A stretch of 64,000 nt of DNA from Candidatus Nomurabacteria bacterium (GTDB lineage: Bacteria > Patescibacteriota > Minisyncoccia > Phycocordibacterales > UBA9973). The DNA lies in contig CP064958.1 in NCBI GenBank assembly GCA_016699085.1, forward strand, positions 3,785 through 67,784. The letters run 5' to 3'. The notes below the pieces were generated by a model, which saw only the letters and a list, made by a program, of their open reading frames with translations, searched no databases and was not told the origin of the DNA. Shown one piece after another: positions 10,671-35,610 of the stretch. The position numbers were made by a program, and so were the translations under genes. Numbering within the stretch: the first letter of the stretch is position 1; every line of letters starts with the position of its first letter.

Positions 10671-11102
10671 TTATTTATTCAGATACGTAATCGTAAACTG
10701 CAACACTGTCGCAAACAAAACCCAGAGTAAATACGGAATATTGAGAAATATAATCCAGGTAAGTGTCGGTGATCCTGTCTCAATATGAGATTTGAGAGAG
10801 AATATATAGAGAGAGGCAAGTGCCCAGATAAGTGTGCCAAGTACAAAAAATATATCAACAGACGCGAGAAGATTATTCTTCAATCCAAACTGGATCGGTG
10901 TGAAAGCAAAATTGAAAACTAAATTCAACGCGTACGGAAGTGCCACCATCCATGGAATCTGTCCTTGATATGCACGATAGAAAACCGTACCAAATGTAAT
11001 CGCAATGATTATATACAGCACGGTCCACACCGGACCAAAAAGCCAGCTTGGCGGAGCCCATGTTGGTTTTATTAAAGTTGAATACCAGTTGTATGTGTTC
11101 AT
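10671..11102 (-). CDS. tspO: TspO/MBR (tryptophan-rich sensory protein) family
   Basis: WYxxLxKPxWAPPxWxFGPVWTVLY N-terminal signature, five TM helices. Confidence 0.8.
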   Translation of the reverse strand: MNTYNWYSTLIKPTWAPPSWLFGPVWTVLYIIIAITFGTVFYRAYQGQIPWMVALPYALNLVFNFAFTPIQFGLKNNLLASVDIFFVLGTLIWALASLYIFSLKSHIETGSPTLTWIIFLNIPYLLWVLFATVLQFTITYLNK

Positions 11103-11173
11103 AAAATTACTTGTCCCGTGGTGAGCTTTGCTCTACTAGTGGGATTTTGCCACAATTTACTAATTTTTATGGT

Positions 11174-11208
11174 TTCCTTATTGCAGTCTTTTGCAAAATG
11201 CTAGTATA
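11174..11208. repeat. 35-bp conserved motif copy A (ttccttattgcagtcttttgcaaaatgctagtata)
   Basis: Contains 10-bp perfect palindrome TTTTGCAAAA; overlaps the last 10 codons of the ArsR gene, 72 bp upstream of tspO start. Confidence 0.8.
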
Positions 11209-11450
11209 GAGATTGCCTTTGAGGTGAGTTTGTGGCGGACATTGGGGCCATCATTGCGCTTCATAATAAGTCTGGCAATCGCCATTTTGCGAATATGGTC
11301 TGAGGTATTTTCATACCCTATCTTGAGCTTCTCTGATATATCTGCCACTGATAATTCCGGTTGCTTTGCCAGTAATTCCAAAATCTTTAGCCGATTATGA
11401 TTGGCAAAGCCTTTTAATAATCTTTCAACTTTTCGATAATCTAGTGCCAT
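11178..11450 (-). CDS. ArsR/SmtB-family HTH transcriptional regulator
   Basis: NHNRLKILELLAKQPELSVADISEKLKIGYENTSDHIRKM winged-helix pattern, 90 aa. Confidence 0.75.
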   Translation of the reverse strand: MALDYRKVERLLKGFANHNRLKILELLAKQPELSVADISEKLKIGYENTSDHIRKMAIARLIMKRNDGPNVRHKLTSKAISILAFCKRLQ

Positions 11451-11475
11451 ACTTTTTTATTATACCCCTACCCTT

Positions 11476-11510
11476 TTTCTTATGCTAGTGTTTTGCAAAA
11501 TGCTAGTATG
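11476..11510. repeat. 35-bp conserved motif copy B (slightly diverged)
   Basis: tttcttatgctagtgttttgcaaaatgctagtatg, 25 bp upstream of ArsR start. Confidence 0.7.
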
Positions 11511-11640
11511 TACTAACTGTGTTTAATTTGAAACTGTAAGAAGTTTCGCTATCGTAAAAATATCTTTCATGTTATACGGCACCTAATAGTCGGTTTTTAG
11601 TAAGACGAAACCTTGCTGGTTGTATCCCATGTATCTAGAT

Positions 11641-12096
11641 TTATATGGTTGTATTATTTAATACCGCTTTAGCAAAAGGCACAGAAAAGGCTTTGCACCA
11701 GATCCAGACTTCTTCTGGAGATACACCTTCCGGCAATTCATAATTTTGAGAGCCCATATTTCCCTTCAACACACTAAGTTCACTACCTTTTATATAACTA
11801 CCGTTTTGTCCAAGGCCTACATATAGATCAGGTCCATTAGCAACCACAAAATCTTCTTCAAAACGAATATAGTTTTTACCACCAATCGATATAACATTTG
11901 CAGTACCAGATCCAGTATGGATTTTATCAAAGCCGGCAAACTGACCTTGTTTTATAACCTCGACACTAGTATCTTCTGTATTTTCGGCAATAGGTAACGT
12001 TTCGCTGACTATTTTATTTATAAAAAATGGAGAAATAAAATAATATCCTGCACCCAGTAAAATAATAACGATTGTGGTTATAACTATTTTTTTCAT
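11641..12096 (-). CDS. Secreted DM13-domain protein
   Basis: Signal/TM N-terminus; HTGSGTANVISIGGKNYIRFEEDFVVANGPDLYVGL matches DM13 domain pattern. Confidence 0.55.
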   Translation of the reverse strand: MKKIVITTIVIILLGAGYYFISPFFINKIVSETLPIAENTEDTSVEVIKQGQFAGFDKIHTGSGTANVISIGGKNYIRFEEDFVVANGPDLYVGLGQNGSYIKGSELSVLKGNMGSQNYELPEGVSPEEVWIWCKAFSVPFAKAVLNNTTI

Positions 12097-12125
12097 AAAT
12101 TTATTCTACCATTTTTCTCTCAATA

Positions 12126-12160
12126 TTCCTTATTGCAGTGTTTTGCAAAATGCTAGTATA
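12126..12160. repeat. 35-bp conserved motif copy C
   Basis: ttccttattgcagtgttttgcaaaatgctagtata, 30 bp upstream of DM13 gene start. Confidence 0.8.
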
Positions 12161-12182
12161 GGCTAATTGTCTGTAGAGTTAA

Positions 12183-12312
12183 ACAAGGGGCACTATATCC
12201 TGCGGAGCATCCTTGTGCCAAAACAGTACAATAGGCGCAACTGCAACACCCCCGCGACAATGTAATTTTTTTTCATATTGGTTTGATGAATGGTGACTGA
12301 CTCCATTTCCTT
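12183..12312. repeat. 125-bp repeat family, copy 1 (about 88% identical to 14981..15110)
   Basis: Direct comparison of the two regions; contains small minus-strand ORF. Confidence 0.75.
12193..12276 (-). CDS. Possible 27-aa peptide MKKNYIVAGVLQLRLLYCFGTRMLRRI inside repeat copy 1
   Basis: ATG..TAG ORF; reading frame preserved relative to copy 2 by two compensating 1-nt indels. Confidence 0.3.
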   Translation of the reverse strand: MKKNYIVAGVLQLRLLYCFGTRMLRRI

Positions 12313-12355
12313 TTTTGGGGAGATATTATAAAACGGCGTGGATTGTTCTCTTAAA

Positions 12356-13363
12356 TTAAACTAGCAAATATTTTGTTTGCTCAAGATATTTTTGTATACC
12401 TTCAATTTTCTCTAATCCTTTAGTTTTGTGCATATAAGGAAGTTTGACAGTTATATTTAAAACCAAAAAAGCATGAAATAATTTTTTGTCATATTCTTCA
12501 TCTCCAAAATACCCATCAACAAATTGCTCACCAGTTTTCCCTATTCCTCCTTTCGAAATTTTATGAAAGAGACTTCTTGTTATATCCATAAATGGGTGGT
12601 GAAAACATGGCCACGGATCAAATACTGTAAACGGTTCTGTGGCAAAAACATTTCCTCCTCCAAAATCATTATGGCAATAAACACTTTCTTTACTGTCTCC
12701 AATATTGGAAATTAAAATGTTAAAAACATCTTCTATTGAACCATGGATATCATCATCCAAAAGTTTATGTTCTTTAACGTATTCAATTTGTGTTTGCATA
12801 TTAGAATCACCTTTCAACCATTCAGCAATACTAAAATATTCAGGTTCACTTTTTTTATTAACAATATTACTGTATCCCTCCGTTTTTGCTTCGTGCATTT
12901 TTCGAAGCAACTTACCCAAATCGTGATATACATTTTTTTCTAGCATTTCTTCTTTTGTATAGGAACTACTAATAGTTTCAGAATCAATATATTCCATTAA
13001 GATATATGGTTGCTCACCAATCTCACCTTCTTCTAAAACATGCGGAACTTTTACGCCTACATTTTCCCAAGTAGTCAAAAATACCCCTTCAAGTCTAGAA
13101 TTTAAAGTACTTAATGGGATTTTTAAGATAAGTTTTTGCTCTAGTGTTTCAATAATACTTACAAGAGAAGAGATACCAGCATGTATAAAAGTAACATCAA
13201 CCTTTTTGCCAGAAAATAAAGGATGTTGAGCTATAAAATCTTTCATTAGAGGAACAAGCTTTTTTCTTCGCTCATTAAACTTTTGATCCACCTCATGTTC
13301 AGAAAGTTTTGGTTCGTTAGTAAAAGTAATTTTTTGAGATGTTTCCATAGCTATTTTATTCAT
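12356..13363 (-). CDS. Aminoglycoside/choline-kinase-type phosphotransferase (APH/ChoK fold)
   Basis: YCHNDFGGGN (HxDxxxxN catalytic loop) and VFDPWPCFHHPFMD (DxD/metal-binding loop). Confidence 0.6.
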   Translation of the reverse strand: MNKIAMETSQKITFTNEPKLSEHEVDQKFNERRKKLVPLMKDFIAQHPLFSGKKVDVTFIHAGISSLVSIIETLEQKLILKIPLSTLNSRLEGVFLTTWENVGVKVPHVLEEGEIGEQPYILMEYIDSETISSSYTKEEMLEKNVYHDLGKLLRKMHEAKTEGYSNIVNKKSEPEYFSIAEWLKGDSNMQTQIEYVKEHKLLDDDIHGSIEDVFNILISNIGDSKESVYCHNDFGGGNVFATEPFTVFDPWPCFHHPFMDITRSLFHKISKGGIGKTGEQFVDGYFGDEEYDKKLFHAFLVLNITVKLPYMHKTKGLEKIEGIQKYLEQTKYLLV

Positions 13364-13391
13364 AAATCTATTTTATCATTTTTTACTAAAT

Positions 13392-13426
13392 TTCCTTATT
13401 GCAGTGTTTTGCAAAATGCTTGTATA
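13392..13426. repeat. 35-bp conserved motif copy D
   Basis: ttccttattgcagtgttttgcaaaatgcttgtata, 29 bp upstream of kinase gene start. Confidence 0.8.
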
Positions 13427-13441
13427 AAAATTGTATACTCA

Positions 13442-13834
13442 TTAATGGTATTTCCAAGCTGTTTGTTTCAATTCCTTTCGGATAGCACTATGGTTGGGCA
13501 CAAGTTCGGCCACTAAATTCCAAAAATTTGCAGAATGATTGAATTCCTTTATGTGGCACAATTCGTGCACTATTATATAGTCGGCAATATGGGGCGGTAA
13601 AAATAAAATTTTGTAATTAAAATTTAAATTCCCCTGCTTGGAGCAGCTACCCCAGCGGGATTTGGTATTTCGAATGGACACCCTTCCCACCTTATAACCA
13701 TAGTGAGTATTGAGCTCGCCAATCTTCTTATGCACCAACCCCCGAGCATCTTCTTTGTATTTTTTATAATCCCACCGAGTATACTTTTTCTTTCCTAAGA
13801 AATTTAAAATTCCGTTTAATGATATTAAAGAATT
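13442..13834 (-). pseudogene. N-terminally truncated YgjP-like (DUF45) metal-dependent hydrolase fragment
   Basis: RWGSC...DYIIVHELCHIKEFNHS (HExxH) matches C-terminal half of the full-length paralog at 15133..15882; open frame only from 13834, TTG start at 13738, in-frame stop at 13835..13837; about 110 N-terminal residues missing. Confidence 0.5.
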
Positions 13835-13861
13835 TTAACACAGCACGTTGTCACATAACTA

Positions 13862-13896
13862 TTCCTTATTGCAGTGTTTTGCAAAATGCTAGTATG
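13862..13896. repeat. 35-bp conserved motif copy E
   Basis: ttccttattgcagtgttttgcaaaatgctagtatg; immediately followed by perfect hairpin ctaggaaggt-aag-accttcctag (13898..13920). Confidence 0.8.
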
Positions 13897-13916
13897 TCTA
13901 GGAAGGTAAGACCTTC

Positions 13917-13991
13917 CTAGACAGGTTTCGGCACCTCCCCAATTTGTAAAACTTCAGGTGGGCCATATTTTTTACAAAGTATTGCTTTCAT
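13917..13991 (-). pseudogene. 24-aa remnant of the N-terminus of a zinc-type alcohol dehydrogenase / quinone oxidoreductase (MDR) gene
   Basis: Minus strand encodes MKAILCKKYGPPEVLQIGEVPKPV then stop; classic MDR N-terminus; leader aaaaatgctaaaataaatttATG resembles leaders of neighbouring cassette genes. Confidence 0.4.
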
Positions 13992-14193
13992 AAATTTATT
14001 TTAGCATTTTTAATAACAAAGCATTCTCACGTGTGTGCGCAATCTCGATCGCAAAGGAGAATAGGAATGAGCGCGGGGCTCCCTATTGTTTTTTATTAAA
14101 TATATGTTATATTGTTGGTTGAATTAGGTCAACGGGCTATACCTAGTTTAATCAAAGACAAATAGCTCTTTCACAATTTAATACCACTGTAAA

Positions 14194-14832: not shown

Positions 14833-14980
14833 CAGTGAGAAACTAATTATTTTTTTAAAACTATTTTCCTTCAAAAAGAAAGTAGTTTTTTTATTTCACC
14901 TTCATTAGTGAAGCAAAAAGATATGTTGTTTCAATTGATATGCAAGAACAGTCCTTGCATATCAGACAAGAGTTCCATCA

Positions 14981-15110
14981 AGGGGCATCATATCCTGCGG
15001 AGCATCCTTGTGCCAAAACAGTACAATACCTGGAACTGCAACAACCCCCGCGACAATGTAATTTTTTTCATATTGGTTTGACAAGCGGTGACTAACCCTA
15101 TTTCCATTTC
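14981..15110. repeat. 125-bp repeat family, copy 2
   Basis: Matches 12183..12312. Confidence 0.75.
14988..15071 (-). CDS. Possible 27-aa peptide MKKITLSRGLLQFQVLYCFGTRMLRRI inside repeat copy 2
   Basis: ATG..TGA ORF; C-terminal 13 aa identical to copy 1. Confidence 0.3.
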   Translation of the reverse strand: MKKITLSRGLLQFQVLYCFGTRMLRRI

Positions 15111-15132
15111 TTGCACCATTTCTTACATTAAT

Positions 15133-15882
15133 TTAACTAGTCTGAACCCCGACAGTTTCCAGCTTATCCTTCACTTTCTCCCATTTCGGAAACTTCTTCT
15201 TCAAGAACTTATAAAAAAGTTTATTGTGACTTCTGTACTTCATATGGCACAACTCATGGACGATAACGTAGTCGATACATTCGCGTGAAGTATGAATGAG
15301 TTTTGGATTCAAAATGACCGTGTCGTTGTCGAGGAAGCTACCCCAACGCTTCTTCATCTCTCTAATAACAAGTGGTGGCATCTTCTTGTAATCAAACTTT
15401 GCTTGCATCAACTCGAATCGCTCATGGAAGACTCGGCCAACTTTTTCTTCGTACCACTTGTCCAAAAGTTTCTTGGTGTGTCGTCCATCCTGCACGCCTT
15501 TGCTTGTATAGACCATAAGCAATCCCTTGGTCATAGACACCTTGTCTTCACTCGAACGCTTCACCATGAGCTTGTACTGCTTGCCGAGATAGAGAAATCC
15601 TTCGCCTGAGACGTATTCCTTCTGGTACACGCGTCGCTGATACTTCTTGAAGAAGCTCAGTTGTTTCTCAAGCCAAAACCACTTCTTTTTTAAGAAGGTT
15701 TCTACTCGCTCATCTTCTGCGCCATGCGGAGCTTTAAGGGTTATTCCGAGGTCTGGTTTTACTGTGAGACTGAGAGTCAGTCTATCTTGCATGACGAGGT
15801 CGTAGTGGTAGACAAATGAGCCAAATACAAATTCTTTTTTAGCTGAAGATTTCATAATTGTTTTCTGCAAGTGAAAGGACAC
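15133..15882 (-). CDS. YgjP-like (DUF45) metal-dependent hydrolase, full length
   Basis: RWGSF...DYVIVHELCHMKYRSHN HExxH motif; position downstream of hsdR is typical for this family. Confidence 0.7.
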   Translation of the reverse strand: MSFHLQKTIMKSSAKKEFVFGSFVYHYDLVMQDRLTLSLTVKPDLGITLKAPHGAEDERVETFLKKKWFWLEKQLSFFKKYQRRVYQKEYVSGEGFLYLGKQYKLMVKRSSEDKVSMTKGLLMVYTSKGVQDGRHTKKLLDKWYEEKVGRVFHERFELMQAKFDYKKMPPLVIREMKKRWGSFLDNDTVILNPKLIHTSRECIDYVIVHELCHMKYRSHNKLFYKFLKKKFPKWEKVKDKLETVGVQTS

Positions 15883-18800
15883 TCGAAATGACGAGCTTCA
15901 TGTCGTCATCCGACAGGTCGATATTCTTCTCCTTCTTCACTACATCGTAGAGATAGTCATCGATAGTGTTCATGATGCGACGCTTCACGTCGATATTCTT
16001 GTACCAATCGACAATTGCTTCCTGCTTCACGATACCGAAGATATCCAAGACAATGGAGATAAACACTTCCTCTGGCATGTTGAACTTCTTGAAGCAATCC
16101 CTGAGGTTGCGGTAGAAGACATCAGAACCTTTCTCGGCAACGATGGTGCTAGGCAAACTATCGTCCTTCTTGTTAACCACATCGTCTTCAATCAACTTCA
16201 ACTGCTTGAGTGCGGCGACATCAGCTATCTTGCCGTCTCGCATCTCCTGCAAGATTTGAGAGATTTTCTTAGAGAATCGTTCGTAGAATTCGGGGTCAGA
16301 CTCCATCCGTTCAGTGATGGTCTTTTGGGTCTGTGCCGCGATTGCTTCGGCTTTGGATTTATCAGAGCCGAGGTTCTCAATAGCTTCCTCAAACTGCTTG
16401 CGGTCAGTGATGTTGATTTGTGTCGTCAAAAGCTCAACGCCTCGCGCATCAACATACTTATCGAGAATATTCACGAGAGATTGTTTGTACTCGGAGAGGT
16501 CAACGCGGTCTGCATACTTCAAACTCGCAGTCTTACGAAGCTCCATGAACTTCTTGAGCTCACGCGTGTACATATCGAGATGAGGAAAAACATGGACGAA
16601 ATCTTGCAGGACAAAACACTCGTTCAAGTTCTTAATGAACGAATTGAGTGCTTTGTAGAACATCTCCCGTTTTGGAGCATCATCAAGAAGCTGAAGAAAT
16701 GCTTCATCGTCGGATGACCCCTTAATCTCCTTGAAGATGTCGTGTACCAAGCTGTAGCTCTCCTCAAGTTCCTGCACCTTCTCAGCAACATCAATAAGCG
16801 TTCCTTTAACATCGTTCTCGTCGTAGTTACCGAAGAGCTTCATCGCAGTATCGATGTTCTTGGCATTCTCTGAATAGTCGATAATATAGCCCGCGGTCTT
16901 TGGGAGCTTCTTGTTTTCGTGTAAGCGATTCACACGAGCGATTGCCTGGAGCAGGTTATGGTCCCTCAAGTCCTTTGCGAGATAGAGTACGGTATTGCGT
17001 GGAGCATCGAACCCAGTGAGCAGTTTGTCGACAACGATAATGATTTCAATGCCATCATCGTTGTACTTGAAACTATCGATAGCATCCTTCTCATACTTCC
17101 CAACATTACTGTGATTCTCACGGACGGTATCGAGATACTTCACCACTTCCTTCTTGTGTGTGTCTTGCTCGTCTCCGTCATCGTGTTCATCAGAGATAAC
17201 GACAGCCGTGCGGACGTTTGCACGAGTCTGGAAGAACTTCTGGAAGAGTACTGCTGAATACTTAGACGGAGCAACAATCTGCGCCTTGAGTCCAGTGTTC
17301 TGGAAGTGGTGCATGAAGTGCTTCTCTATATCGTAGGCAATCTCAACAATACGTTGAGGATTGTCTTTGATTATCTTGGAGCCAACATACTTCTGGAGTT
17401 CCTTCTTCTGTTTGTCGTTGAGGTCTTCGGTAACGCGAGCAACGTGTCGGTCGATTTGTTCTTCGTTCTGAATCAAATCAACATAGCGACCTTCATAGAT
17501 AAGAGGAAGGATGATTTTGTCAGCCAATGCGTCATCGATGGTGTACTTGTCGATATAGCCACCGAACTTTCTCCAGCTCTCTTTCTCTCCCTTCATGAGT
17601 GGCGTACCCGTAAAGCCGATGTAGCACGCACTCGGAATGATTCGATTCATTTCTACGTTTGCGATACCACTCTGGCTTCGGTGTGCTTCGTCGATAAGAA
17701 CGAAGATGTTTTGGTCTTCATCAACAAATCCTGCCTTTTTCTTGGCAGCTGATTCAAATTTGTGAACCAGTGTCGTAACGACAGCGAGGTTTTTATCCCT
17801 GATGAGGTCGAGCAGGTTTTGACCACTCGTTGCCTGTATCACTTCTTTTTTGAGATTACAGTTCTTGAACGTATCTTTGATTTGTTTATCCAAGTCCTTA
17901 CGGTCGGTCACGATAATGACGCGTGGATTGTTTATGTGAGGGTTCTCAATCAGAGCTTTCACAAACATCACCATGGTGAGTGACTTACCAGACCCTTGTG
18001 TGTGCCACACCAAACCACCTCGGCGACGAGTGATACCTGAAGGGCTTGTCTCTGTCTCAGCAACACGCTCAAGCATCTTGTGAATTGCAAAGTACTGTTG
18101 GTAGCGAGAGAGTTTCTTTACTCCAGCATCAAAGAGAATGTAGTTCTTAGTGAGGTCGAGAAGTCGAGCGGGCTCAAAGAGTGCCGCGATGCCACGGTCT
18201 TGTTCAGTTGGGAGACGATTCATTTTCTGCACGTGACCTTCGGTGTATCCGTTTAGGTCAGTGAGAATCTGGGCGTATACAGTCGGGTCTACTTTTGTAG
18301 CAATCAGTGCTTTTGCTTTAGCATTTTCGTCTGCTTCAGGCGTACTTTTCTCTTTCCAGACTGCATAGAATTTATTTGGTGTGCCAATAGTGCCGTACTG
18401 AAGCTCTTTGCCGTTTGTACCAACAAGAAGTTGGGTGTAGGTAAAGAATTTAGGACAAAACTCTGGACCCTGATTGCGGTTCATCTGGTTAATAGCTTCT
18501 AGCGTTGCTACTCCTGACTTCTTGTTCTCAATGACCGCGATAGGGATACCGTTTACGAAACAGACGATATCGGGACGAATGGTTTGCTTTCCAGTCACGA
18601 CGAATTCTGCCGTCACATGGAAGGCGTTATTCTCTGGATTTTGGAAATCTATAAAACGGAAGTTTTTAGAAACTGTCTTTCCTCCAACGCTTACCTTGAT
18701 AGTCTTACCACCGCTTGTTGGCATGATGGTGTTGTAGATTTTCTGTGCGGTATCAATAAGACCTTCGTACTGAATATGTTCGAGCTCATCTATAGCGTCG

Positions 18801-19027
18801 CGTACGTCCTTCTCGCCGAATTTGTACTCAGTGCCAGCGACTTCGTAGCTGTTGATTTCCATGAGCTTCTCATTGGCAATATCAGTGAGAATGAAACTAC
18901 TCGTGTCACCACCGCGCTGACGTAGTGCCTCTTCAGTAGAGATGTATTTGTACCCCATAGCCAAAAGGAGCTCCAATGCTGGGAGTTGGGACTGTCGTGC
19001 TTCATCAAAGTGTACTTTTTCTAGCAT
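15839..19027 (-). CDS. hsdR: Type I restriction enzyme R subunit (HsdR)
   Basis: WHTQGSGKSLTM (motif I), VLIDEAHRSQ (DEAH), FTGTP, LQAIARVNR (motif VI); 1062 aa. Confidence 0.9.
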   Translation of the reverse strand: MLEKVHFDEARQSQLPALELLLAMGYKYISTEEALRQRGGDTSSFILTDIANEKLMEINSYEVAGTEYKFGEKDVRDAIDELEHIQYEGLIDTAQKIYNTIMPTSGGKTIKVSVGGKTVSKNFRFIDFQNPENNAFHVTAEFVVTGKQTIRPDIVCFVNGIPIAVIENKKSGVATLEAINQMNRNQGPEFCPKFFTYTQLLVGTNGKELQYGTIGTPNKFYAVWKEKSTPEADENAKAKALIATKVDPTVYAQILTDLNGYTEGHVQKMNRLPTEQDRGIAALFEPARLLDLTKNYILFDAGVKKLSRYQQYFAIHKMLERVAETETSPSGITRRRGGLVWHTQGSGKSLTMVMFVKALIENPHINNPRVIIVTDRKDLDKQIKDTFKNCNLKKEVIQATSGQNLLDLIRDKNLAVVTTLVHKFESAAKKKAGFVDEDQNIFVLIDEAHRSQSGIANVEMNRIIPSACYIGFTGTPLMKGEKESWRKFGGYIDKYTIDDALADKIILPLIYEGRYVDLIQNEEQIDRHVARVTEDLNDKQKKELQKYVGSKIIKDNPQRIVEIAYDIEKHFMHHFQNTGLKAQIVAPSKYSAVLFQKFFQTRANVRTAVVISDEHDDGDEQDTHKKEVVKYLDTVRENHSNVGKYEKDAIDSFKYNDDGIEIIIVVDKLLTGFDAPRNTVLYLAKDLRDHNLLQAIARVNRLHENKKLPKTAGYIIDYSENAKNIDTAMKLFGNYDENDVKGTLIDVAEKVQELEESYSLVHDIFKEIKGSSDDEAFLQLLDDAPKREMFYKALNSFIKNLNECFVLQDFVHVFPHLDMYTRELKKFMELRKTASLKYADRVDLSEYKQSLVNILDKYVDARGVELLTTQINITDRKQFEEAIENLGSDKSKAEAIAAQTQKTITERMESDPEFYERFSKKISQILQEMRDGKIADVAALKQLKLIEDDVVNKKDDSLPSTIVAEKGSDVFYRNLRDCFKKFNMPEEVFISIVLDIFGIVKQEAIVDWYKNIDVKRRIMNTIDDYLYDVVKKEKNIDLSDDDMKLVISSVLSLAENNYEIFS

Positions 19028-19033
19028 GGTGTT

Positions 19034-20260
19034 TTAGTTATGGGTTGATAATTTTTCTGGTGTCCGAATCGTTCCTGTAATGAGATTGTTCAAAAGATAC
19101 CGTTTTTGTTCTTGGAGAACTTTTAGCTTACGCTTAAGAACTTGAATTTCTTCGTCCGCAGTAGTAAGTATGTTTGCAATTGCATCTTGTTCGATTTTTG
19201 GAGGAAAAACAGCCTTAAAACCTTCAAAGACTTTAGCCGACAAATGTTTAACCGTTGTAGAACTAGTTTCTTGTTCGATTATTTTTAAAGGAACTTGAAT
19301 CTTATAGAAGAGATAGTCTTTATTTGCATTCTTAAATGCCACCAACTTTCCCACTCGTTGGTTTAAGAGAGCCTTGCCTTTAGACCATTTACAAGTCATG
19401 AAATCACCGTCCATCCCGATCAAAATATCCCCGTCCTGTACAGTGTAAGAATCTGGAATATCCGTCCCGGAATAGTACAAAATCTGACCATCTCCCTTTA
19501 AATCTCTATTTCTTACCACACGAACACCTCTCTCTTCAGAAAAATATTTAGACGGAAAAGGAAATCCGCTCCAAAATTTACATGCATCACCAAACGACTT
19601 GGATTCCCATTTGTCTTTAAACTCTGGTAAACGAGTTTTGCCCGTAAGTAATTCCTGCATCAAACCTTTTTTAATATGCTTTTTGTTTTCAATCTTCTGG
19701 GCAAGTTTTCCAATAGCTTTGTCCCAAGTCTCAAGTACTAAAACAATTCTTTTCTGCTCAGAAACGGGCGGGAGTTTTATGTTTACATGATTGAGTAAGG
19801 TGCCACTGGTTAGAGCACGGGTTGTGTATGAACTTTTCTCCATTATCTCTTTACGGGCTGATTGAGTACGAAAACAGTATTGAGCATATTCAGGAACTAG
19901 CACTTTACTTTTAGGACGAGCCCGTAGAACGAAGCCACTAAAAACAGTGTCTCGAAAGTCATCTAGTGCAACAGCAGAAAATCCGATTTCATCCAATGTT
20001 TCTGAGGTTCTAGTAAAAAAAACATCGCCTCTCTTTACATTGAATCTACCTAACTCAGATTTATTAACCTCAACTCTCCCTAATACATTATCTTTGTAGA
20101 GTCCACCGCCTTTATTAACGTCCATGTAATTGATTATCGGGGTGCCGTGTCCAAAAAACTCTTTTTCTTTGTTGAGTCCGTTTTTGAAATCAAAAAGACC
20201 TACGAGCTTCATAGCTCGCCATCCTTTCGGGATATTCTCTTGTATAGGTTTATTTTTCAT
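19034..20260 (-). CDS. hsdS: Type I R-M specificity subunit (HsdS), two target-recognition domains
   Basis: 408 aa, duplicated TRD architecture with conserved central and C-terminal coiled regions. Confidence 0.85.
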   Translation of the reverse strand: MKNKPIQENIPKGWRAMKLVGLFDFKNGLNKEKEFFGHGTPIINYMDVNKGGGLYKDNVLGRVEVNKSELGRFNVKRGDVFFTRTSETLDEIGFSAVALDDFRDTVFSGFVLRARPKSKVLVPEYAQYCFRTQSARKEIMEKSSYTTRALTSGTLLNHVNIKLPPVSEQKRIVLVLETWDKAIGKLAQKIENKKHIKKGLMQELLTGKTRLPEFKDKWESKSFGDACKFWSGFPFPSKYFSEERGVRVVRNRDLKGDGQILYYSGTDIPDSYTVQDGDILIGMDGDFMTCKWSKGKALLNQRVGKLVAFKNANKDYLFYKIQVPLKIIEQETSSTTVKHLSAKVFEGFKAVFPPKIEQDAIANILTTADEEIQVLKRKLKVLQEQKRYLLNNLITGTIRTPEKLSTHN

Positions 20261-21098
20261 CTAGCTTTTTAATGGCTCCGAGTTGTTGTGAAATGGATTG
20301 CAATTGCTTCTTCACCTCAGCGTCCTTATCTTTTTTCTTCTTTTCATCTATCTTTTGATCCAGGATTAGCTCAATTGAGAGCTTAAGTGGCAAGAAATAC
20401 TGCCGACACTCATCTTCAGAGAGTTCGTGCACGCCCCTACTTAGAATTCCGTATATTGCTTTCATTTCAACAAGCTGGCTTGGAAGATGTTCTTTAAGAA
20501 GAACGATTTTATCCTCCATCCTCGTAGTCTTAAATACATCAGCCGCAACCTTTAGATCTTTAGCTCCACTAAATGTTTCTTGGATAAGATTCTCAAAGAT
20601 TCGACGCAAATAAACAAATGAGCCCGCCCCTGCACCGTGAGCTGCAAGACCAATAGCTTTTTTAAGATTCTTCAAATCCTCTTCAGGAAGAACCTTGTCA
20701 TACTTTTTACCCAATTCAGCAAATTGCAGGTCAGCCAAAGATGGGAATTGGCCAACTTTCATGACTTGCTTGGTCATTTCATTCTTATATACAAAGAAAC
20801 ATAGAGTATCGTTGTCCTTTCTCTTGCACTTAAGAGTCACGACAGCAAAGCCGCTAACCTTTTCAGGTGTGTACTGATTTACATACTCTGTGTCTAGCTT
20901 TTTTATCCACGAAAAACCCACACTGTAGGTAGTGTCGGTGTGATTTTTTGCTGAGTAGGCATCTACGTCTTCAGAAAATAGCTCCAACGGTTTCTCAAGA
21001 TCAGAGTATTCAAATAATTCGTATATTGGGGTTTCAAAGTAAAAATCATGCTTAGTTAATTTCGCCTTTTCTAATTCTGTGTTCGCTTGTTCGGTCAT
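20250..21098 (-). CDS. Hypothetical protein embedded between hsdM and hsdS (possibly DUF4145-like)
   Basis: 282-aa ORF with start/stop overlapping neighbours; C-terminal region GLAAHGAGAGSFVYLRRIFENLI...LSRGVHELSEDE loosely resembles DUF4145 proteins often found in type I R-M loci; assignment by memory only. Confidence 0.55.
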   Translation of the reverse strand: MTEQANTELEKAKLTKHDFYFETPIYELFEYSDLEKPLELFSEDVDAYSAKNHTDTTYSVGFSWIKKLDTEYVNQYTPEKVSGFAVVTLKCKRKDNDTLCFFVYKNEMTKQVMKVGQFPSLADLQFAELGKKYDKVLPEEDLKNLKKAIGLAAHGAGAGSFVYLRRIFENLIQETFSGAKDLKVAADVFKTTRMEDKIVLLKEHLPSQLVEMKAIYGILSRGVHELSEDECRQYFLPLKLSIELILDQKIDEKKKKDKDAEVKKQLQSISQQLGAIKKLDEK

Positions 21099-21099
21099 A

Positions 21100-22614
21100 T
21101 TAGTTGATTCCTAGTTCCTTTAAATATCCGACCATTTGTTTTTCAAGCTTCTGAAGCTCAGGCTCAAGGGAGGCGAGCTCCTTGAGGTTTGCCTTAATAT
21201 CTACAGGCGCCTCTTCCTCGAAGGTATCGACATAGCGAGTGATGTTGAGATTGAATTCGTTTTCTTCTATCTCACTGACGCTGACCTTGCGAGAAAACTT
21301 CTCAATATCCTTCCTCTTCTTGTAGGTATCAAAAATCTTCACAATATTTTCCTCGGTCAGCGTGTTCTGTGCTTTGCCTTGCTTGAACTCCTTTGAGGCT
21401 TCGATAAATAGGACATCTTTCTTCTTTTCATTCGCACCACCTTTCTCGCGTGAACGGTCAATGACCAACACAGCAACTGGAATACCAGTAGTCTGGAAGA
21501 GTCCTGCTGGAAGTCCGATGACGGTATCGATAATATTTTCATTCAAGAGTTGCTCGCGAATCTTTCCTTCAGCACCACCTCGGAAGAGAACACCGTGAGG
21601 GACGATGACCGCGACGCGTCCAGTTTTTGGCTTTGCGGTTTCAACCATATGAGTGATGAATGCAAAGTCGCCTTTATCTTTTGGCGGTACACCACGCCAG
21701 AAGCGATTGTATTTATCTGACTCGGCATGTTCAGCACCCCACTTCTTGAGGGAGAAGGGTGGGTTCGCGACCACTACGTCGAAGTGCATGAGGCTGTCGT
21801 TCTCCACCAAGAGCGGATTGTTGAGCGTGTCGCCCCATTCGATACGAGCAGAGTCTTTGCCGTGGAGGAACATGTTCATACGAGCGAGCTGGTATGTAGA
21901 GCCAGTAGATTCCTGACCGTAGAGCGCATAGTTCTTTGAACCTTGCTTCTCAACTTCCTCACCAGCCAAGAGAAGTAGACCTCCCGAACCGCAGGCAGGG
22001 TCTGAAATTCTGTCACCCTCTTTTGGTTCGGCAAGCATTGCGACGAGATGTGCGACTGAACGTGTGGTGAAAAATTCTCCCGCTTTTTTGCCAGCATCCG
22101 CACCAAAACGCTCAATCATGTACATGTAGGAATTACCGATTATGTCATCGTCTACATCAGAGAGGTCAATCTTTGCAAAGTCCTGAATCAAATTACGGAG
22201 CATCTTGTTGCGCTGTTCAAGTTTGCCAAGGATTGATTCGGAGTTGAAATCGACACTGAACACGCCATCAAGTTTTTCCTTGTTAGCATCTTCAATGCGG
22301 TGAAGTGCTTTGTTTATTTCTTCACCAATATTATCCTCCTCAATCTTGCTGTAGAGATAATCAAAGGACGACTTCGGGGGTAGGTAGAAGCGGTCGAGCT
22401 TCATTTTTTCTTCGATACGCTTTTCGTCGCTTCCGAAACGCTCCTTGTATTCGTCGTGACGCTTTTTGTTGAGGTCACTTATATATTTCAAGAAAAGCAT
22501 CGTCAACGCATAGTCTTTGTAGACACCACCGTCCACGCTACTACGTGAAGAATCAGCCGCCGACCAGAGCGTCTTGTTGAGGTCTTCCTGTGTGTATTTT
22601 TTGTGAGTAGTCAT
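21100..22614 (-). CDS. hsdM: Type I R-M N6-adenine DNA methyltransferase subunit (HsdM)
   Basis: VVANPPFS catalytic motif IV, SAM-binding DPACGSGG motif I, 504 aa. Confidence 0.9.
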   Translation of the reverse strand: MTTHKKYTQEDLNKTLWSAADSSRSSVDGGVYKDYALTMLFLKYISDLNKKRHDEYKERFGSDEKRIEEKMKLDRFYLPPKSSFDYLYSKIEEDNIGEEINKALHRIEDANKEKLDGVFSVDFNSESILGKLEQRNKMLRNLIQDFAKIDLSDVDDDIIGNSYMYMIERFGADAGKKAGEFFTTRSVAHLVAMLAEPKEGDRISDPACGSGGLLLLAGEEVEKQGSKNYALYGQESTGSTYQLARMNMFLHGKDSARIEWGDTLNNPLLVENDSLMHFDVVVANPPFSLKKWGAEHAESDKYNRFWRGVPPKDKGDFAFITHMVETAKPKTGRVAVIVPHGVLFRGGAEGKIREQLLNENIIDTVIGLPAGLFQTTGIPVAVLVIDRSREKGGANEKKKDVLFIEASKEFKQGKAQNTLTEENIVKIFDTYKKRKDIEKFSRKVSVSEIEENEFNLNITRYVDTFEEEAPVDIKANLKELASLEPELQKLEKQMVGYLKELGIN

Positions 22615-22616
22615 GG

Positions 22617-23201
22617 TTATTTGATGGTTAAGCTTTTAAATGTTGCGTTGATAATGTTTTGTTTGATTTCCTTTTCTCTATCAATAATTTTTTGCTGTTC
22701 GCGAATGTTTATAAAAAGATTTATGAGTGCCTCCTGCTTTCGCAGGGGAGGTATCGGGATGTCTATTTTTTCTAACTCTTTACGAGGCAGTGCTCCGATG
22801 TATGAACCTGAAATAATCTGAGTGAGAGACTCCTGACCCTCTTTAGAATTTAAATAGTGTGAAAGATATTCTGGAAGTACTTCTTTCGAGGTGACACGGA
22901 TGACATGGACGGAGGAAGAAGGAATGACGTTCGATTCATCGGCAATATATGTGGTTGACCTGAATGCGCCTGACTTCATGCCACGAGCGACGAGAAGGAC
23001 ATCGTTCTTTTGGAGGTGACCGGAATACCCAGGGGTATCGTGAGATATTCTGGTGAGGGTTTTCGTATTATCAAACGGTACTCCTTGGACGAGGTCTTTT
23101 GCCTGAAATACAAAGAGGTCGCCAGTGTTGTCTGGCTTGATGGCACCTCGGAAGGTGTACCCTGCAATTACCTCTGATACTTCATGCAATTTCATATACA
23201 T
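22617..23201 (-). CDS. Half-size type I R-M specificity subunit (single TRD HsdS)
   Basis: 194 aa; one TRD plus conserved C-terminal helical spacer (LRKQEALINLFINIREQQKII). Confidence 0.65.
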   Translation of the reverse strand: MYMKLHEVSEVIAGYTFRGAIKPDNTGDLFVFQAKDLVQGVPFDNTKTLTRISHDTPGYSGHLQKNDVLLVARGMKSGAFRSTTYIADESNVIPSSSVHVIRVTSKEVLPEYLSHYLNSKEGQESLTQIISGSYIGALPRKELEKIDIPIPPLRKQEALINLFINIREQQKIIDREKEIKQNIINATFKSLTIK

Positions 23202-25544: not shown

Positions 25545-26792
25545 TTAATCGAAGTAATTTTTTAACCTCATGATCTTTTCGTTCTGACGGAGTTTGTCAT
25601 GGACTTTAGCTTCGATCTGACGAATACGCTCACGAGTAACGCCGAATTCTGAGCCAACTTCTTCGAGCGTGTGCTGTACACCATCGATGAGACCGAAACG
25701 CATTTCGAGAATCTTCTTCTCTTTGGGTGAGAGTTCGCTCAAGACTTCTTGGATCTTGTCAGTGAGTATTCTTCGTGAAGACTCTTGGTCAGGCCTGAGG
25801 ATTTTGTCATCAGGAATAAATTCACCACGAGTTGACTTCTCATCATCATCCCCGATTGGTTGCTCGAGTGAGATGGTGTCTTGGTTAATGTTTTCGATCA
25901 CGTGGACTTTCTCGACATCAATGCCCATTTCAGTTGCGATCTCTTCGGCAAGTGGCTCACGGCCCAAGTCTTGGGAGAGGCGGCGGACGACTTGTTTGTA
26001 TTTAGAAATAGTCTCAACCATGTGCACAGGAATACGAATCGTGCGAGATTGGTCGGCGAGCGCACGAGTGATTGATTGGCGGATCCACCATGTTGCATAG
26101 GTTGAAAATTTATACCCTTTGGTCCAGTCAAATTTCTCGACAGCCTTAAAGAGGCCCAAGTTGCCTTCTTGGATAAGATCAAGGAGGGTGAGGTCGGAAC
26201 TACGACCAACGTATTTCTTGGCAATAGAGACAACGAGACGAAGGTTCGCGCGAGCAAGCAAGTTCTTGGCTTCGAGATCACCCGCTTCGATGCGACGCGC
26301 GAGCTCTTTCTCTTCTTCGGCTTTGATGAGCGGGTACTGACCGATTTCTTTTAAATATATTTGGATTGAGTCGTAGGTAGAGTCCTTGCCGTATTTATAC
26401 TCGTTTTTATCTTTGACAATAGCATCAAGATCAAGCAAGTTACCACCCTCGAGCACATCGATTCCGGCTGCACCGAATTTCTCATAGAGATCATCAAGGA
26501 AAAGAATGTTCGTTTCAATATCTGGGAAAATTTTAAGTATCTCATCATAGGTGATAAAGCCACGCTTCTTGCCCTTTTCCACCATCGTCGTTGCTTTCTG
26601 TTCCAGAAGTTCAGCCTTGGTCAATTTCTTGCCAGAATGCATGACTGCTTTGGGTTCAGATTTCTTAGCTTGGACTTTAGTTTTAGCTTTAATAGGCACT
26701 TTCTTTACCACTACCTTTTTAGCCTTTGGTTTTGCGACAACCTTTTTCTTTGCCTTCACTACTTTTTTCTTTTTTGCTATTTTTTTACTCAT
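25545..26792 (-). CDS. rpoD: RNA polymerase sigma-70 factor RpoD with about 50-aa Lys-rich N-terminal tail
   Basis: Regions 1.2-4 conserved ([14 protein letters not shown], region 4 HTH); N-terminus [20 protein letters not shown]. Confidence 0.9.
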
Positions 26793-26803
26793 GCGTTTAT
26801 AAA

Positions 26804-28540
26804 TTATACTTGTTTACTTTTAATATCATGGATCTTTTTTGAAATCTGCTGGCATTCGCCGAGGAGCTCGAGGCTCCGTACCGTATCTTTATCACGTTCT
26901 GCTTTCTTAAGTTCGATAAGTAATTCTTGGAATCGCTTCTCCAGAAAATGTTTTTCAAATTGCAGCAAGAGTTCATTGGTTTCGGTTTCTAAACTCTCTT
27001 TGCCAGCCGTGAGAATTTCTGCCTGCAATGTGATATCATCTCTCACCTTCTCTTCGAGTTTGGCAATCTCTAGTTCGATAGCGCTTCCCGTAATACGTTC
27101 CCACTCAGTTTCGTATTGTATACGTGCTATTCTACTATCATTTCGCAAATGTCCAAGCAAATAGTAGCCAAGTAATTGCTCATAGAGCCGCTCAGCATTC
27201 GACTTGATAGCGATCGGCGTCTCGACATCTACTACCTCAGGGACAGCTGGCTTTTGTAATTTAGAAACTTCTTCATCTATGTATTTCGGTGCTATGTGCG
27301 CCAGATCAGCAATTTTTGAAATGTAGTGACCTTGCACGATGCGCGACTGTAAAAGCGCAACGTACGGTAATATTTGCTTCTGGATAGCGAGCATGCGTTT
27401 CTCTGCATCCATGTCCGTTCTAAAAAGAATATCTAAGTAAAAATCAATCACATGTTTACCGGCACCGGCAAGTTTCTCCCAGGCATCCGTACCATGTTCT
27501 AAAATATAGTCTGCTGGATCTTGCCCTTGTGGCAGGGACAAGAGAGACACTTCCATACCTTCAGCAAGCGCGAGTTTAACACTCCTGCCACCTGCTTCGA
27601 TACCTGCACTATCACCATCAAAGCAAAAGATGACATTGTTGGTAAATCGCTTGATGAGTGCTAGATGCTCTTTGGTAAGCGCTGTGCCTGATACAGCCAC
27701 ACTATGCTTCGTACCTGCTTGTTGTGCCATGATGAGATCCATTTGACCTTCGACCATAATGACGGCGTTTTCTTTGAGTATTGCTTGCTTGGCTAGATGA
27801 TAGCCATAGAGAATATGACTTTTGCTATAGAGTGCAGTTTCAGGACTGTTGACGTATTTGGCACTATCAGCAGGTACTGCGACTCCAGGATTTGCAAAAA
27901 TTCTTCCCGTGAATGCAACTACTTTGCCGCGACTATCCATAATCGGAAACATAATCCGATCTCGAAAGCGATCAAAGTAATCACGCTTGCCACGAATAAC
28001 GAGGCCTGCTTTGACCAACTCTTCATCACTATAATTTTTTGTTTTCAGATGTTCATAGAGCGCACTCCACGATGATGGTGAAAATCCGATACGAAATTCT
28101 TTGATGGTTTTCTCGGTCAGTCCTCTTGTTTGTAAGTATTTCTTTGCATGAGGATTGTTTGCCAGCAGGCCTTCATAAAATGAAGTCGCATCTTCCATGG
28201 CATCATGTAACCTCACACGCTCCCCGTCTTCTTTGGTGTACGTTTTCGTGAGTGTAATGCCTGCACGTTCAGCGAGAAGCTTGAGCGCAGCCACGAAATC
28301 TATACCCTCGATTTCTTGGACAAAGCTAAATATATCCCCGCCTCTGCCGCAGCCGAAACAGTGATAACTATTACGAGACGGGGAAACGAAGAACGAAGCA
28401 GACTTTTCATTATGGAATGGACAACGCGCCTTGAAATAGATTCCAGCTTTTTCAAGTCGAATGTAGGATGCGACAACATCATGGATCGGAAGGCGCTCTT
28501 TGATTTGTTCTGCCGGTGATTGCATAGATGGCAGGGACAC
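26804..28540 (-). CDS. dnaG: DNA primase DnaG
   Basis: [13 protein letters not shown]...CFGCGRGGD zinc-binding domain, TOPRIM domain (EGQMDLI, DGDSAG). Confidence 0.9.
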
Positions 28541-28567
28541 AAGTGTTTAATTGATACGCTTCTTTAT

Positions 28568-32176: not shown

Positions 32177-32193
32177 AATGTGTAGATAAGTAA

Positions 32194-35379: not shown

Positions 35380-35610
35380 AGAAATTGTTGTGCCAAAGAA
35401 AGTATACAGACACAAAAATAAACGAAAAAAGCGAGGGAAGCAAAAGCTACCTTTCTTTTAAGGTCTACTGCGTTGTATTACTTTTTTGTAGCAAAATGGA
35501 TAGTGACTTTGCTAATAAGGTTAGATTGAAGCCAGAGTTACTCAATCTTTCAATCGGGATAAGTATATAGGAGGAGCTAGTAGTTGTCAACTACTCTGGT
35601 GGATAATTCC

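Follow-up and report, generated by a model that had tools for sequence, protein, structure and literature searches.

The Patescibacteria, or candidate phyla radiation (CPR), have tiny genomes with few regulators, and the control of their transcription is almost uncharted. Auxiliary operators located inside coding sequences, i.e., lac O2 in lacZ and gal OI in galE, act by looping. Proteins of the ArsR/SmtB family bind 12-2-12 inverted repeats situated upstream of their target genes or inside them, and an operator region has one or two of these repeats (PMC8790569). Putative mobile promoters are upstream sequences of 50–100 nt which share at least 80% identity and stand before non-homologous genes (Matus-Garcia et al. 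2012, PMC3488235). Here, we analyse a stretch of 64,000 nucleotides from a Candidatus Nomurabacteria bacterium (assembly GCA_016699085.1, contig CP064958.1, positions 3,785 to 67,784 of the forward strand; hereafter the window, in whose numbering all positions without a locus label are given), where five copies of a palindromic motif are interspersed with small genes in a 2.7-kb array. One of these genes, at 11178–11450, encodes a protein of the ArsR/SmtB family, and comparison of the locus with its relatives leads us to regard the motif as probably the operator of this very protein, a portable operator which doubles as a recombination joint.

The initial annotation had counted five co-oriented copies of the motif in an array of unrelated genes, and both observations are borne out. 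The 34-mer TTCCTTATTGCAGTGTTTTGCAAAATGCTAGTAT occurs on the plus strand at 11174, 12126, 13392 and 13862 with at most one mismatch, and shuffled sequences (n = 100) gave no match. The diverged fifth copy, at 11476, was recovered by a repeat finder in a five-member family (D1) with spacings of 302, 650, 1266 and 470 bp, and a search of the window with the 17-nt core returned 5 exact matches against 0.19 expected, with one other match, at 40777, carrying 2 mismatches. A relaxed core scan of the whole 64 kb found no sixth copy outside the 2.7-kb array. All five copies have the same orientation (the minus-strand reading of the motif is ATACTAGCATTTTGCAAAACACTGCAATAAGGAA), and the genes of the array, which all lie on the minus strand, are assigned by Pfam to TspO, HTH_5/ArsR, DM13, APH and YgjP-like families. 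The spacings, with genes inside the intervals, agree with the earlier statement that this is not an array of clustered regularly interspaced short palindromic repeats (CRISPR). The motif had also been called unrecognizable from described systems, with which our literature searches concur, since no description of the motif or of the regulator subfamily was found in the literature searched.

The central TTTTGCAAAA, which had been taken as the palindrome, does not mark its extent; the real palindrome is far larger, with 14–15 nt per half-site. In full, the motif is a 28–30-bp palindrome composed of TATWCTAGYnTTTTG and CAAAAnRCTAGWATA. The consensus across the sampled loci is TCTATTCTAGTATTTTG joined to CAAAACACTAGAATAAG, and the copy upstream of the regulator in L012 (L numbers denote sampled loci) is a perfect 28-bp palindrome, ATACTAGTGTTTTG joined to CAAAACACTAGTAT. 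A scan of representative genomes, with one genome per species, detected the motif in 18 loci, nearly all of them in Patescibacteria, often as a pair about 303 bp apart around a 90-aa gene homologous to 11178–11450. The linkage between site and gene was counted in 122 sources (1.1 Mb) holding 116 regulator genes; a later set comprised 124 sources (1.14 Mb), in which other genomes were sampled as 8–20-kb pieces. A site centred on TTTTGCAAAA lies no more than 120 nt upstream of the regulator ATG in 110 of 113 genes, and in 114 of 116 the centre of a second site falls exactly 15.5 nt ahead of the stop codon's end. These upstream and gene-end sites are 287–304 bp apart, and both conserved half-sites are present at 259 of the 277 occurrences of TTTTGCAAAA in the later set. 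The presence of one site at the regulator's own promoter and another in its gene end, at such frequencies, bears the hallmark of autoregulation through an operator. Two sites are the mode (91 loci) and three occur in 16, the five sites of the window being the largest array among the 124 loci sampled.

The gene-end site reads Ile-Leu-Ala/Val-Phe-Cys-Lys-x-Leu-Gln/Glu-stop. Among 80 unique 90-codon regulator genes, its synonymous codons are frozen, with Leu83 encoded by CTA in 99%, Phe85 by TTT in 99%, Cys86 by TGC in 100% and Lys87 by AAA in 100%, whereas invariant residues elsewhere in the regulator use mixed synonymous codons (top codon 30–70%). Since constraint on the protein alone is insufficient to explain these frozen codons, the site within the coding sequence is under selection at the DNA level. 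Phe-Cys-Lys, written TTT TGC AAA, is a clean natural instance of dual coding, in which protein and DNA are constrained together. The co-occurrence of site and gene (about 97–98% over 116 loci), a palindrome of ArsR/SmtB size and the DNA-level selection strongly support one of the two interpretations offered in the initial annotation, i.e., that a dimer of the locally encoded ArsR protein binds the palindrome and thereby defines a mini-regulon.

The candidate regulator (11178–11450, minus strand) is a 90-aa ArsR/SmtB-fold winged-helix protein, with a Pfam HTH_5 score of 32.1 bits (cutoff 22) and a score of 52.8 bits with the generic NCBIfam HTH_metalloreg model, slightly below the cutoff of 55. 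Profile matches in the PDB include CadC (1.9e-9) as well as HlyU, CzrA, PagR and SmtB. An AlphaFold2 model (pLDDT 89.7) shows the topology α1-α2-α3-α4-β1-β2-α5, with helices at residues 5–15, 18–29, 35–42 and 46–58, strands at 62–67 and 70–75, and a last helix at 77–89, and Foldseek relates it to CadC, PagR, HlyU, CzrA, SmtB and SqrR with TM-scores of 0.8–0.88. Fold, sequence profile and a palindromic operator at its own promoter all place the protein in the ArsR/SmtB family. Metal ligands were sought in a family alignment (A1), where the α3 segment ELSV(A/x)D (ELSVAD in the window) has no Cys pair and the α5 segment SIL(A/V)FCKxLQ has no His/Asp/Glu ligand set; a single Cys, Cys86, is invariant. 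Such ligand sets define the metal-sensing subgroups rather than the ArsR/SmtB family as a whole, and HlyU, PagR and NolR lack them as well.

Homologues of the regulator fall into 706 clusters at E < 1e-5, of which the best 120 are 69–90% identical, and a scan with alignment A1 returned more than 553 metagenome relatives, with 80 loci kept. The module of regulator and site spans hundreds of lineages of the ultra-small Patescibacteria/CPR, and the regulator family is, as far as sampled, confined to Patescibacteria. The regulators of the window and the L030 lineage share 78% identity, compared with 64.5% for RpoC, 72% for RpoD and 41% for DnaG, and regulator paralogues within one locus are only 52–65% identical to the window protein, none being a recent copy. 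The high conservation and the lack of recent copies favour a strongly constrained, mostly vertically inherited regulator residing in a fast-turning island, rather than a proliferating element. The regulator island is found near rpoB-rpoC-dnaG-rpoD in both the window (25545–35415) and L030 (498–14205), lying between rpoC and dnaG in L030 and about 14 kb beyond rpoD in the window. In L102, three operator sites at 5085, 5208 and 5331, i.e., in exact 123-bp tandem spacing with no open reading frame (ORF) between them, precede a single regulator gene; a second paralogue of the regulator is located at a distance of 8 kb.

Within the window, all five sites are on the minus strand. The gene-end site (site 1; 11174–11207, with TTTTGCAAAA at 11189–11198) covers the last nine codons and the stop codon of the regulator gene, confirming its reported position inside the gene end; its codons, ATA CTA GCA TTT TGC AAA AGA CTG CAA TAA, read ILAFCKRLQ and stop. 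It also lies 71 nt 5′ of the ATG of a TspO/MBR gene (10671–11102, minus strand; Pfam PF03073, 5.5e-26). The regulator's upstream site (site 2; 11476–11509) has the right half ACTAGCAT, which is nearer to the palindrome, and its centre lies 31 nt before the hexamer TATAAT (11459–11464), the ArsR ATG following 8 nt past this hexamer. The remaining sites stand alone before cargo genes and are of the gene-end type, carrying the right half ACTGCAATAAGG (equivalent to Leu-Gln-stop) and not the upstream-type ACTAGCAT; in other genomes, solo sites beside the regulator are likewise of the gene-end type and are always co-oriented with the regulator. Site 3 (12126–12159; right half ACTGCAATAAGG) is followed by TGG (12109–12111), TAGAAT (12103–12108), 6 nt and the ATG at 12096 of a DM13-domain secreted protein (11641–12096, minus strand; Pfam PF10517), of which L009 has a 93% identical form. 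Site 4 (13392–13425) is followed by TGA (13376–13378), TAAAAT (13370–13375), 6 nt and the ATG at 13363 of an APH-family kinase-like protein (12356–13363, minus strand; Pfam PF01636, 6.9e-12), which is identical in a sister strain (JGI contig Ga0558120_00698, L124/L128) and in two other samples. Site 5 (13862–13895) is followed by TGT (13838–13840), TAAAAT (13832–13837), 6 nt and an ATA at 13823–13825, the start of a short YgjP-like metallopeptidase gene (13442–13825, minus strand; Pfam PF01863, profile positions 118–206).

Each copy had been said to lie 25–30 bp upstream of a gene, with TspO as the exception. This stands for ArsR (25 nt), DM13 (29 nt) and APH (28 nt), with TspO at 71 nt, and fails for the fifth copy, whose listed ORF begins at a TTG 123 nt away, whereas the homologous 127-aa gene in L003 and the sister strain begins 36 nt after the motif. 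The listed ORF (13442–13738), which matches only the C-terminal half of the Pfam model, had been read as a truncated YgjP fragment. This reading is untenable, as the 127-aa form is conserved in L003 and L124 and is not a cut-down long YgjP. An origin as a fragment of the neighbouring full-length YgjP was rejected for the same reason, the two being only distantly related. In the window the short gene opens with ATA, where both L003 and the sister strain (98.5% identical) have ATG; together with leaderless transcripts, this ATA start suggests that the gene of the fifth copy is probably silenced, i.e., inactivated, in the strain of the window.

The promoters that accompany the sites have a compact geometry. 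Each solo copy precedes an extended −10 element (pattern TGnTAnAAT), 6 nt and a start codon, as seen in the DM13 (TGGTAGAAT-AAATTT-ATG), APH (TGATAAAAT-AGATTT-ATG) and short YgjP (TGTTAAAAT-TCTTTA-AT(A)) modules, and the regulator's own promoter reads TATAAT-N8-ATG. With the −10 element placed 6–8 nt before the start codon, transcripts would start at or beside the start codon, and the transcripts of the solo-site genes thus look leaderless. Leaderless translation appears common in this organism: a −10-like hexamer lies 4–10 nt before the ATG in 8 of the 44 large ORFs of the window, compared with 3.7% of all ATG triplets (about 5-fold), and a Shine–Dalgarno-like sequence precedes only 2 of the 44. 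The distance from the palindrome centre to the −10 element is 36–37 nt for DM13 and APH, 44 nt for short YgjP and TspO, and 31 nt for ArsR. Across genomes, the distance between the upstream site's centre and a −10-like hexamer is 18–19 or 31 nt in 72 of 83 unique contexts, such that this site overlaps or abuts the −35/spacer region, a repressor-like geometry. A −35 element within the motif itself was considered and rejected, because by inspection no hexamer stands at a workable spacing from the −10 element.

Two side observations concern non-coding sequence around these promoters. A leader of about 30 nt, from the −10 element to the ATG, is common to the rhodanese gene of L003 (7600–7640) and the TspO gene of L012 (GGTTYGACWAGYTCACCSTAAAT); the leader of the window TspO gene (11103–11150) includes AGCTCACC, and the shared leader sequence may be a small cis element particular to these non-leaderless members. 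Between DM13 and site 2, a non-coding stretch (11544–11594) is common to L012 and L014 (86–93% over 29–51 nt); it holds a −10-like TATAAC with the ATG of a 14-codon ORF directly after it and may be the remnant of a gene start.

What follows the regulator varies widely. In 64 of 79 distinct loci the next gene is co-directional (median gap 43 nt), in the other 15 it is convergent, and the downstream genes are hypervariable, forming 65 clusters among 105 ORFs. Pfam-confirmed products include cupin, rhodanese, PhnA/YjdM, GNAT, DUF4386, 2-hydroxyacid dehydrogenase and S11 peptidase. The most frequent neighbour is TspO, which has homologues in 18 ArsR-centred loci and directly follows the regulator in L012 and L109. 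A clear −10 element is found within 80 nt of only 42 of 86 gene-end sites, and some of these sites precede terminator-like hairpins. In L065 (9025–10000), a solo site stands before a 272-aa ORF which by eye resembles a DDE transposase (IS5/Harbinger type), the only such cargo seen.

From this co-occurrence and geometry, we infer that the regulator binds the palindrome as its operator. The basic module would consist of an operator, a −10 element, the regulator gene and a second operator in the regulator's last nine codons; in the clade of the window, an outward-facing extended −10 element after the second operator would drive whichever gene lies next. A dimer would bind each palindrome and repress transcription until released by a signal, which would not be a classical metal. 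The gene-end operator would have been propagated before the DM13, APH-like kinase and short YgjP genes, with the original copy serving TspO, so that five leaderless-type promoters with one operator would form a local regulon. The sites, being direct repeats, are recombination joints as well. Repression is suggested both by family precedent and by the upstream site abutting or overlapping the −35/spacer region, and the strong extended −10 elements of the cargo promoters should need no activator; we therefore consider repression somewhat more probable than activation.

Several observations weigh against this interpretation. At the cargo promoters, the palindrome is centred at about −49 (about −35 to −64), i.e., off the −10 element and the transcription start site, so activation or no effect is possible there. 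The link between protein and site is comparative only, and the 64-kb window has no site outside the 2.7-kb array, so that a dispersed regulon is not seen there. Co-variation between half-sites is absent from gene-end sites and in modest excess in upstream sites, and such palindromic co-variation does not distinguish protein binding from a hairpin, co-evolution with a homodimer fitting equally well. The gene-end site is kept even when the next gene is convergent or a terminator-like hairpin follows, and its conserved role may be other than control of the downstream gene, e.g., looping, a roadblock or auxiliary autoregulation; that it is almost never lost, despite its varied downstream context, argues for a role intrinsic to the regulator module, besides any downstream control. 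Finally, the sister strain keeps all of the sites and has no regulator at the locus, and an identical protein is not on record in its assembly, showing that sites can persist without a nearby regulator.

The best-surviving alternative, which we nevertheless consider improbable, builds on two of these observations, i.e., the conservation of the gene-end site whatever lies downstream and the persistence of sites in a strain without a local regulator. The palindrome could be bound by another factor or be structural, with the ArsR-like gene no more than its carrier, such as the site of a nucleoid or partition protein, a replication or termination signal, or a spreading centre like that of AspA, the ArsR-like partition adaptor to which the regulator shows weak profile matches (E about 1.5e-4). 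However, the second copy at the regulator's own promoter in 97% of loci is the classical pattern of autoregulation, the sites cluster at the promoters of co-directional genes, the best structural and sequence matches are the transcription repressors CadC, PagR, HlyU, CzrA and SmtB, and no ParA/ParB-type genes were seen in the annotated neighbourhoods.

The comparison with the sister strain points to the second property of the sites, that of recombination joints. This strain is 98.5–98.8% identical to the window over 15081–11475 and 11207–6059 and is missing precisely the 302 bp that separate site 2 from site 1, retaining one hybrid site. At the junction, the left flank of site 2 is followed by ATACTAGCATTTTGCAAAA and then by the right part of site 1 leading into TspO, which places the crossover within a 19-nt identity. 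The precision of the 302-bp difference means that the regulator was either deleted in the sister strain or inserted in the lineage of the window. A second unit bounded by sites, that of short YgjP (13411–13881 from centre to centre, 470 bp), is 92.6% identical to L003 6805–7275; in L003 it stands between a full-length alcohol dehydrogenase (ADH) gene and the regulator, and in L005 the regulator comes immediately after this ADH flank. The sister strain additionally has a unit of ADH stump, site and Peptidase_S51. Moreover, the upstream and gene-end sites of one gene agree with each other at 75% versus 42% expected (low-information positions, ±6), a sign of concerted evolution. The proposal that cassette content varies at the sites in relatives thus stands for the 302-bp ArsR and 470-bp short-YgjP units. 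It does not stand for other breakpoints, which lie outside the sites: at a start codon (the L014 junction), 14 nt after the DM13 stop codon (the DM13 unit in L009) and inside a repeat, the R element, at the island boundary. These junctions show that the sites also act as joints at which neighbouring genes are reshuffled. We infer that short-homology recombination or replication slippage takes place at these direct repeats of a palindrome, with no dedicated recombinase; the lack of an annotated integrase or resolvase within ±10–15 kb in four lineages, the off-site breakpoints and the absence from viral contigs together disfavour such an enzyme.

The other interpretation in the initial annotation, a dedicated cassette-boundary site analogous to attC, would make the palindrome the attC/attI-like site of an unrecognised site-specific recombinase. 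The site-bounded units that differ between genomes (the 302-bp unit with its clean hybrid site and the 470-bp unit) speak for it, as do the hypervariable gene after the regulator (65 clusters among 105 ORFs), two independent ADH stumps that stop at the left edge of a site, and the co-orientation of solo sites with the regulator. However, a recombinase search ±10–15 kb around the array found none among the annotated genes, in accord with the earlier remark on the missing integrase, and no integrase or resolvase Pfam domain was found over this distance in L020, L030 or L122 either. In addition, 91 of the 124 loci contain no sites besides the pair around the regulator, the genes 5′ of which the sites are placed have promoters of their own, the single-strand fold of the motif is no better than that of shuffled sequence (RNA parameters), some breakpoints lie elsewhere, and a 302-bp deletion between 19-nt direct repeats does not need an enzyme. 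No relatives were found on viral contigs: a phage or plasmid vehicle was set aside after a motif scan of IMG/VR gave one weak, non-matching match and the regulator profile found no relatives there. We hence regard a dedicated cassette system as unlikely, marginally more so than binding by another factor.

The portability of the putative operator is evident from the modules that precede the cargo genes. The upstream modules of DM13 and APH are 87.8% identical over 74 nt, with one promoter of about 40 nt common to both; the short-YgjP copy has an extended −10 element of its own. An alignment of 14 modules before unrelated genes shows that, in the clade of the window, the site and its promoter of about 40 nt form one module, which precedes no fewer than 8 unrelated genes in 7 or more genomes. 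The origin of the module can be traced to the 3′ end of the regulator gene, since its right half, ACTGCAATAA, encodes Leu-Gln-stop. The DM13 block (11627–12159) is 92% identical to L009, where it directly follows the ArsR gene, and the homology stops at the site. Because the short-YgjP and DM13 units are more alike between genomes (92%) than another shared gene (72.5%), some lateral exchange of cargo units is likely.

These same modules could be read as plain promoter propagation, in which the palindrome is merely a part of the promoter (e.g., UP-like) and no regulator is bound. The shared DM13/APH module and its occurrence before unrelated genes fit the published definition of 50–100 nt at 80% identity or more (PMC3488235). 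However, conservation of the palindrome reaches far outside the clade in which the promoter is shared, extending to loci with another −10 spacing, a convergent neighbour or no promoter. Moreover, the palindrome is frozen within a coding sequence, and sigma-70 promoter elements do not have two-fold symmetry, such that promoter propagation by itself is quite unlikely. Least plausible of all, an RNA-level terminator, attenuator or processing hairpin would suit the palindromic sequence and the copy at the 3′ end of a coding sequence, yet is contradicted by weak folds of two copies (−4.3 and −1.7 kcal/mol; z +0.4 and +1.1, no better than shuffles), an AU-rich stem without a U-tract, the position of the upstream and solo copies 5′ of the −10 elements from which they would hence not be transcribed, and the lack of an Rfam match at the gathering threshold or at E up to 1.

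If the sites are operators, one protein family is paired with a defined 30-bp site, which offers a testable system and a basis for regulon prediction in uncultured lineages. Operators acting as joints would remodel an accessory and defence island and could delete the regulator itself, tying regulation to genome plasticity without a mobile-element enzyme. A bolder extension, which we hold only as a speculative possibility, is that the module serves as an integrase-free platform for gene capture and expression, in which protein-bound palindromes are preferred joints through synapsis, looping or stalled forks. It is just as speculative that whatever lands downstream would be expressed under the control of the regulator, with units, the regulator included, being added, swapped and deleted. 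If true, such a platform would build small self-regulated cassette arrays in streamlined CPR genomes.

The variable-island character of the region, as had been claimed, is confirmed by the near-identical sister strain, which carries a different defence island. Between a shared YgaP-like gene and the R element, the window (15082–23201) has full-length YgjP and a type I restriction–modification locus (hsdR, hsdS, hsdM and a second hsdS fragment), whereas the sister strain (L128 8769–13831) has MethyltransfD12, a DUF6996/6997/7226 protein, N6_N4_Mtase, Peptidase_S51 and Methyltransf_33. The R element is a repeat found 3′ of cargo genes. Its two copies in the window, at 12184–12314 (minus strand; mini-ORF frameshifted) and 14979–15109 (frame kept via a TTG start, 14962–15084, 40 aa), are 86% identical to each other, and the boundary of the strain-variable island falls inside the second (about 15081). 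Further copies occur in L003 (5712–5785), L006 (3965–4031), L014 (5681–5734 and 6352–6465), L043 (9061–9208) and L124 (4273–4395). The varying length of its A-run suggested a non-coding repeat, which was set aside because R in the sister strain encodes an intact 36-aa single-helix mini-protein, MKKIYIVAGAVAVLLIVLFWHKDAPQDMMPLDGTLV. An additional contig of the same strain as the window (L040, SRR11674009) ends inside site 3, at 12153, consistent with short-read assemblies splitting at the repeats; such arrays are thus probably under-represented in metagenome bins.

Adjacent to site 5 lies a 24-codon 5′ stump of a zinc-type alcohol dehydrogenase/quinone oxidoreductase gene (13917–13991, minus strand) with its own TGCTAAAAT −10 element at 13998–14006; L003 and L005 have a full-length ADH at the same place (Pfam ADH_N/ADH_zinc_N). 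A perfect 11+11 hairpin (13896–13922; −20.8 kcal/mol, z −6.5) joins the stump to site 5. Of its two arms, the right one is similar to the left flank usually found at the sites, and the left one repeats it in inverted form, an arrangement which looks like the scar of an illegitimate deletion of the snap-back type. The sister strain shares this hairpin and has a further, independent ADH stump (L124 2397–2488) that is joined to a different site with no hairpin.

Compared with known systems, the array differs from repeats that are regular or dispersed. CRISPR arrays are regularly spaced with short spacers, whereas here the intervals of 302, 650, 1266 and 470 bp hold genes. Repetitive extragenic palindromic (REP) or miniature inverted-repeat transposable element (MITE)-like repeats are dispersed genome-wide, whereas the motif has 0 copies outside the 2.7-kb array in 64 kb and is tied to the regulator gene across the 124 loci. 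Integron arrays resemble it superficially, in that unrelated small genes are co-oriented, each with a conserved imperfect palindrome, and site-bounded units differ between strains. However, no IntI-type recombinase was found among the annotated genes within ±10–15 kb in the window, L020, L030 and L122, and the usual array here consists of two sites around one regulator gene. In addition, attC lies at the 3′ end of promoterless cassettes and folds as single-stranded DNA, whereas the sites here lie 25–71 nt 5′ of start codons, have their own −10 elements and are double-strand palindromes without an attC-like bottom-strand fold.

Putative mobile promoters match the locus in having an upstream module (here of about 75 nt, at 80% identity or more) before non-homologous genes, both within and between genomes. 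They differ in that the module here carries a defined operator with an adjoining candidate regulator gene, and in having a traceable origin, the 3′ end of that gene. As with lac O2 and gal OI, a second operator is found within an ORF some hundreds of bp further downstream, here 287–304 bp from the promoter-proximal operator; unlike them, it is part of the gene for the regulator itself and faces the following promoter as well. We know of no ArsR/SmtB proteins that form looping tetramers.

The closest relatives are the ArsR/SmtB autorepressors (SmtB, CzrA and CadC; among non-metal members HlyU, PagR, BigR, SqrR and NolR), with which the regulator shares a small winged-helix fold, an imperfect inverted repeat of about 26–30 bp at its own promoter, and one or two operators upstream of or within the regulated genes. 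It differs from the metal-sensing members in lacking α3 or α5 metal ligands. In practically all members, the second operator falls within the final nine codons of the regulator, where synonymous positions are frozen, and the downstream gene is hypervariable instead of a fixed resistance gene. Relative to ArsR autoregulation as described, what sets this locus apart is an operator placed in the stop-proximal codons, a portable operator–promoter module and a hypervariable cargo.

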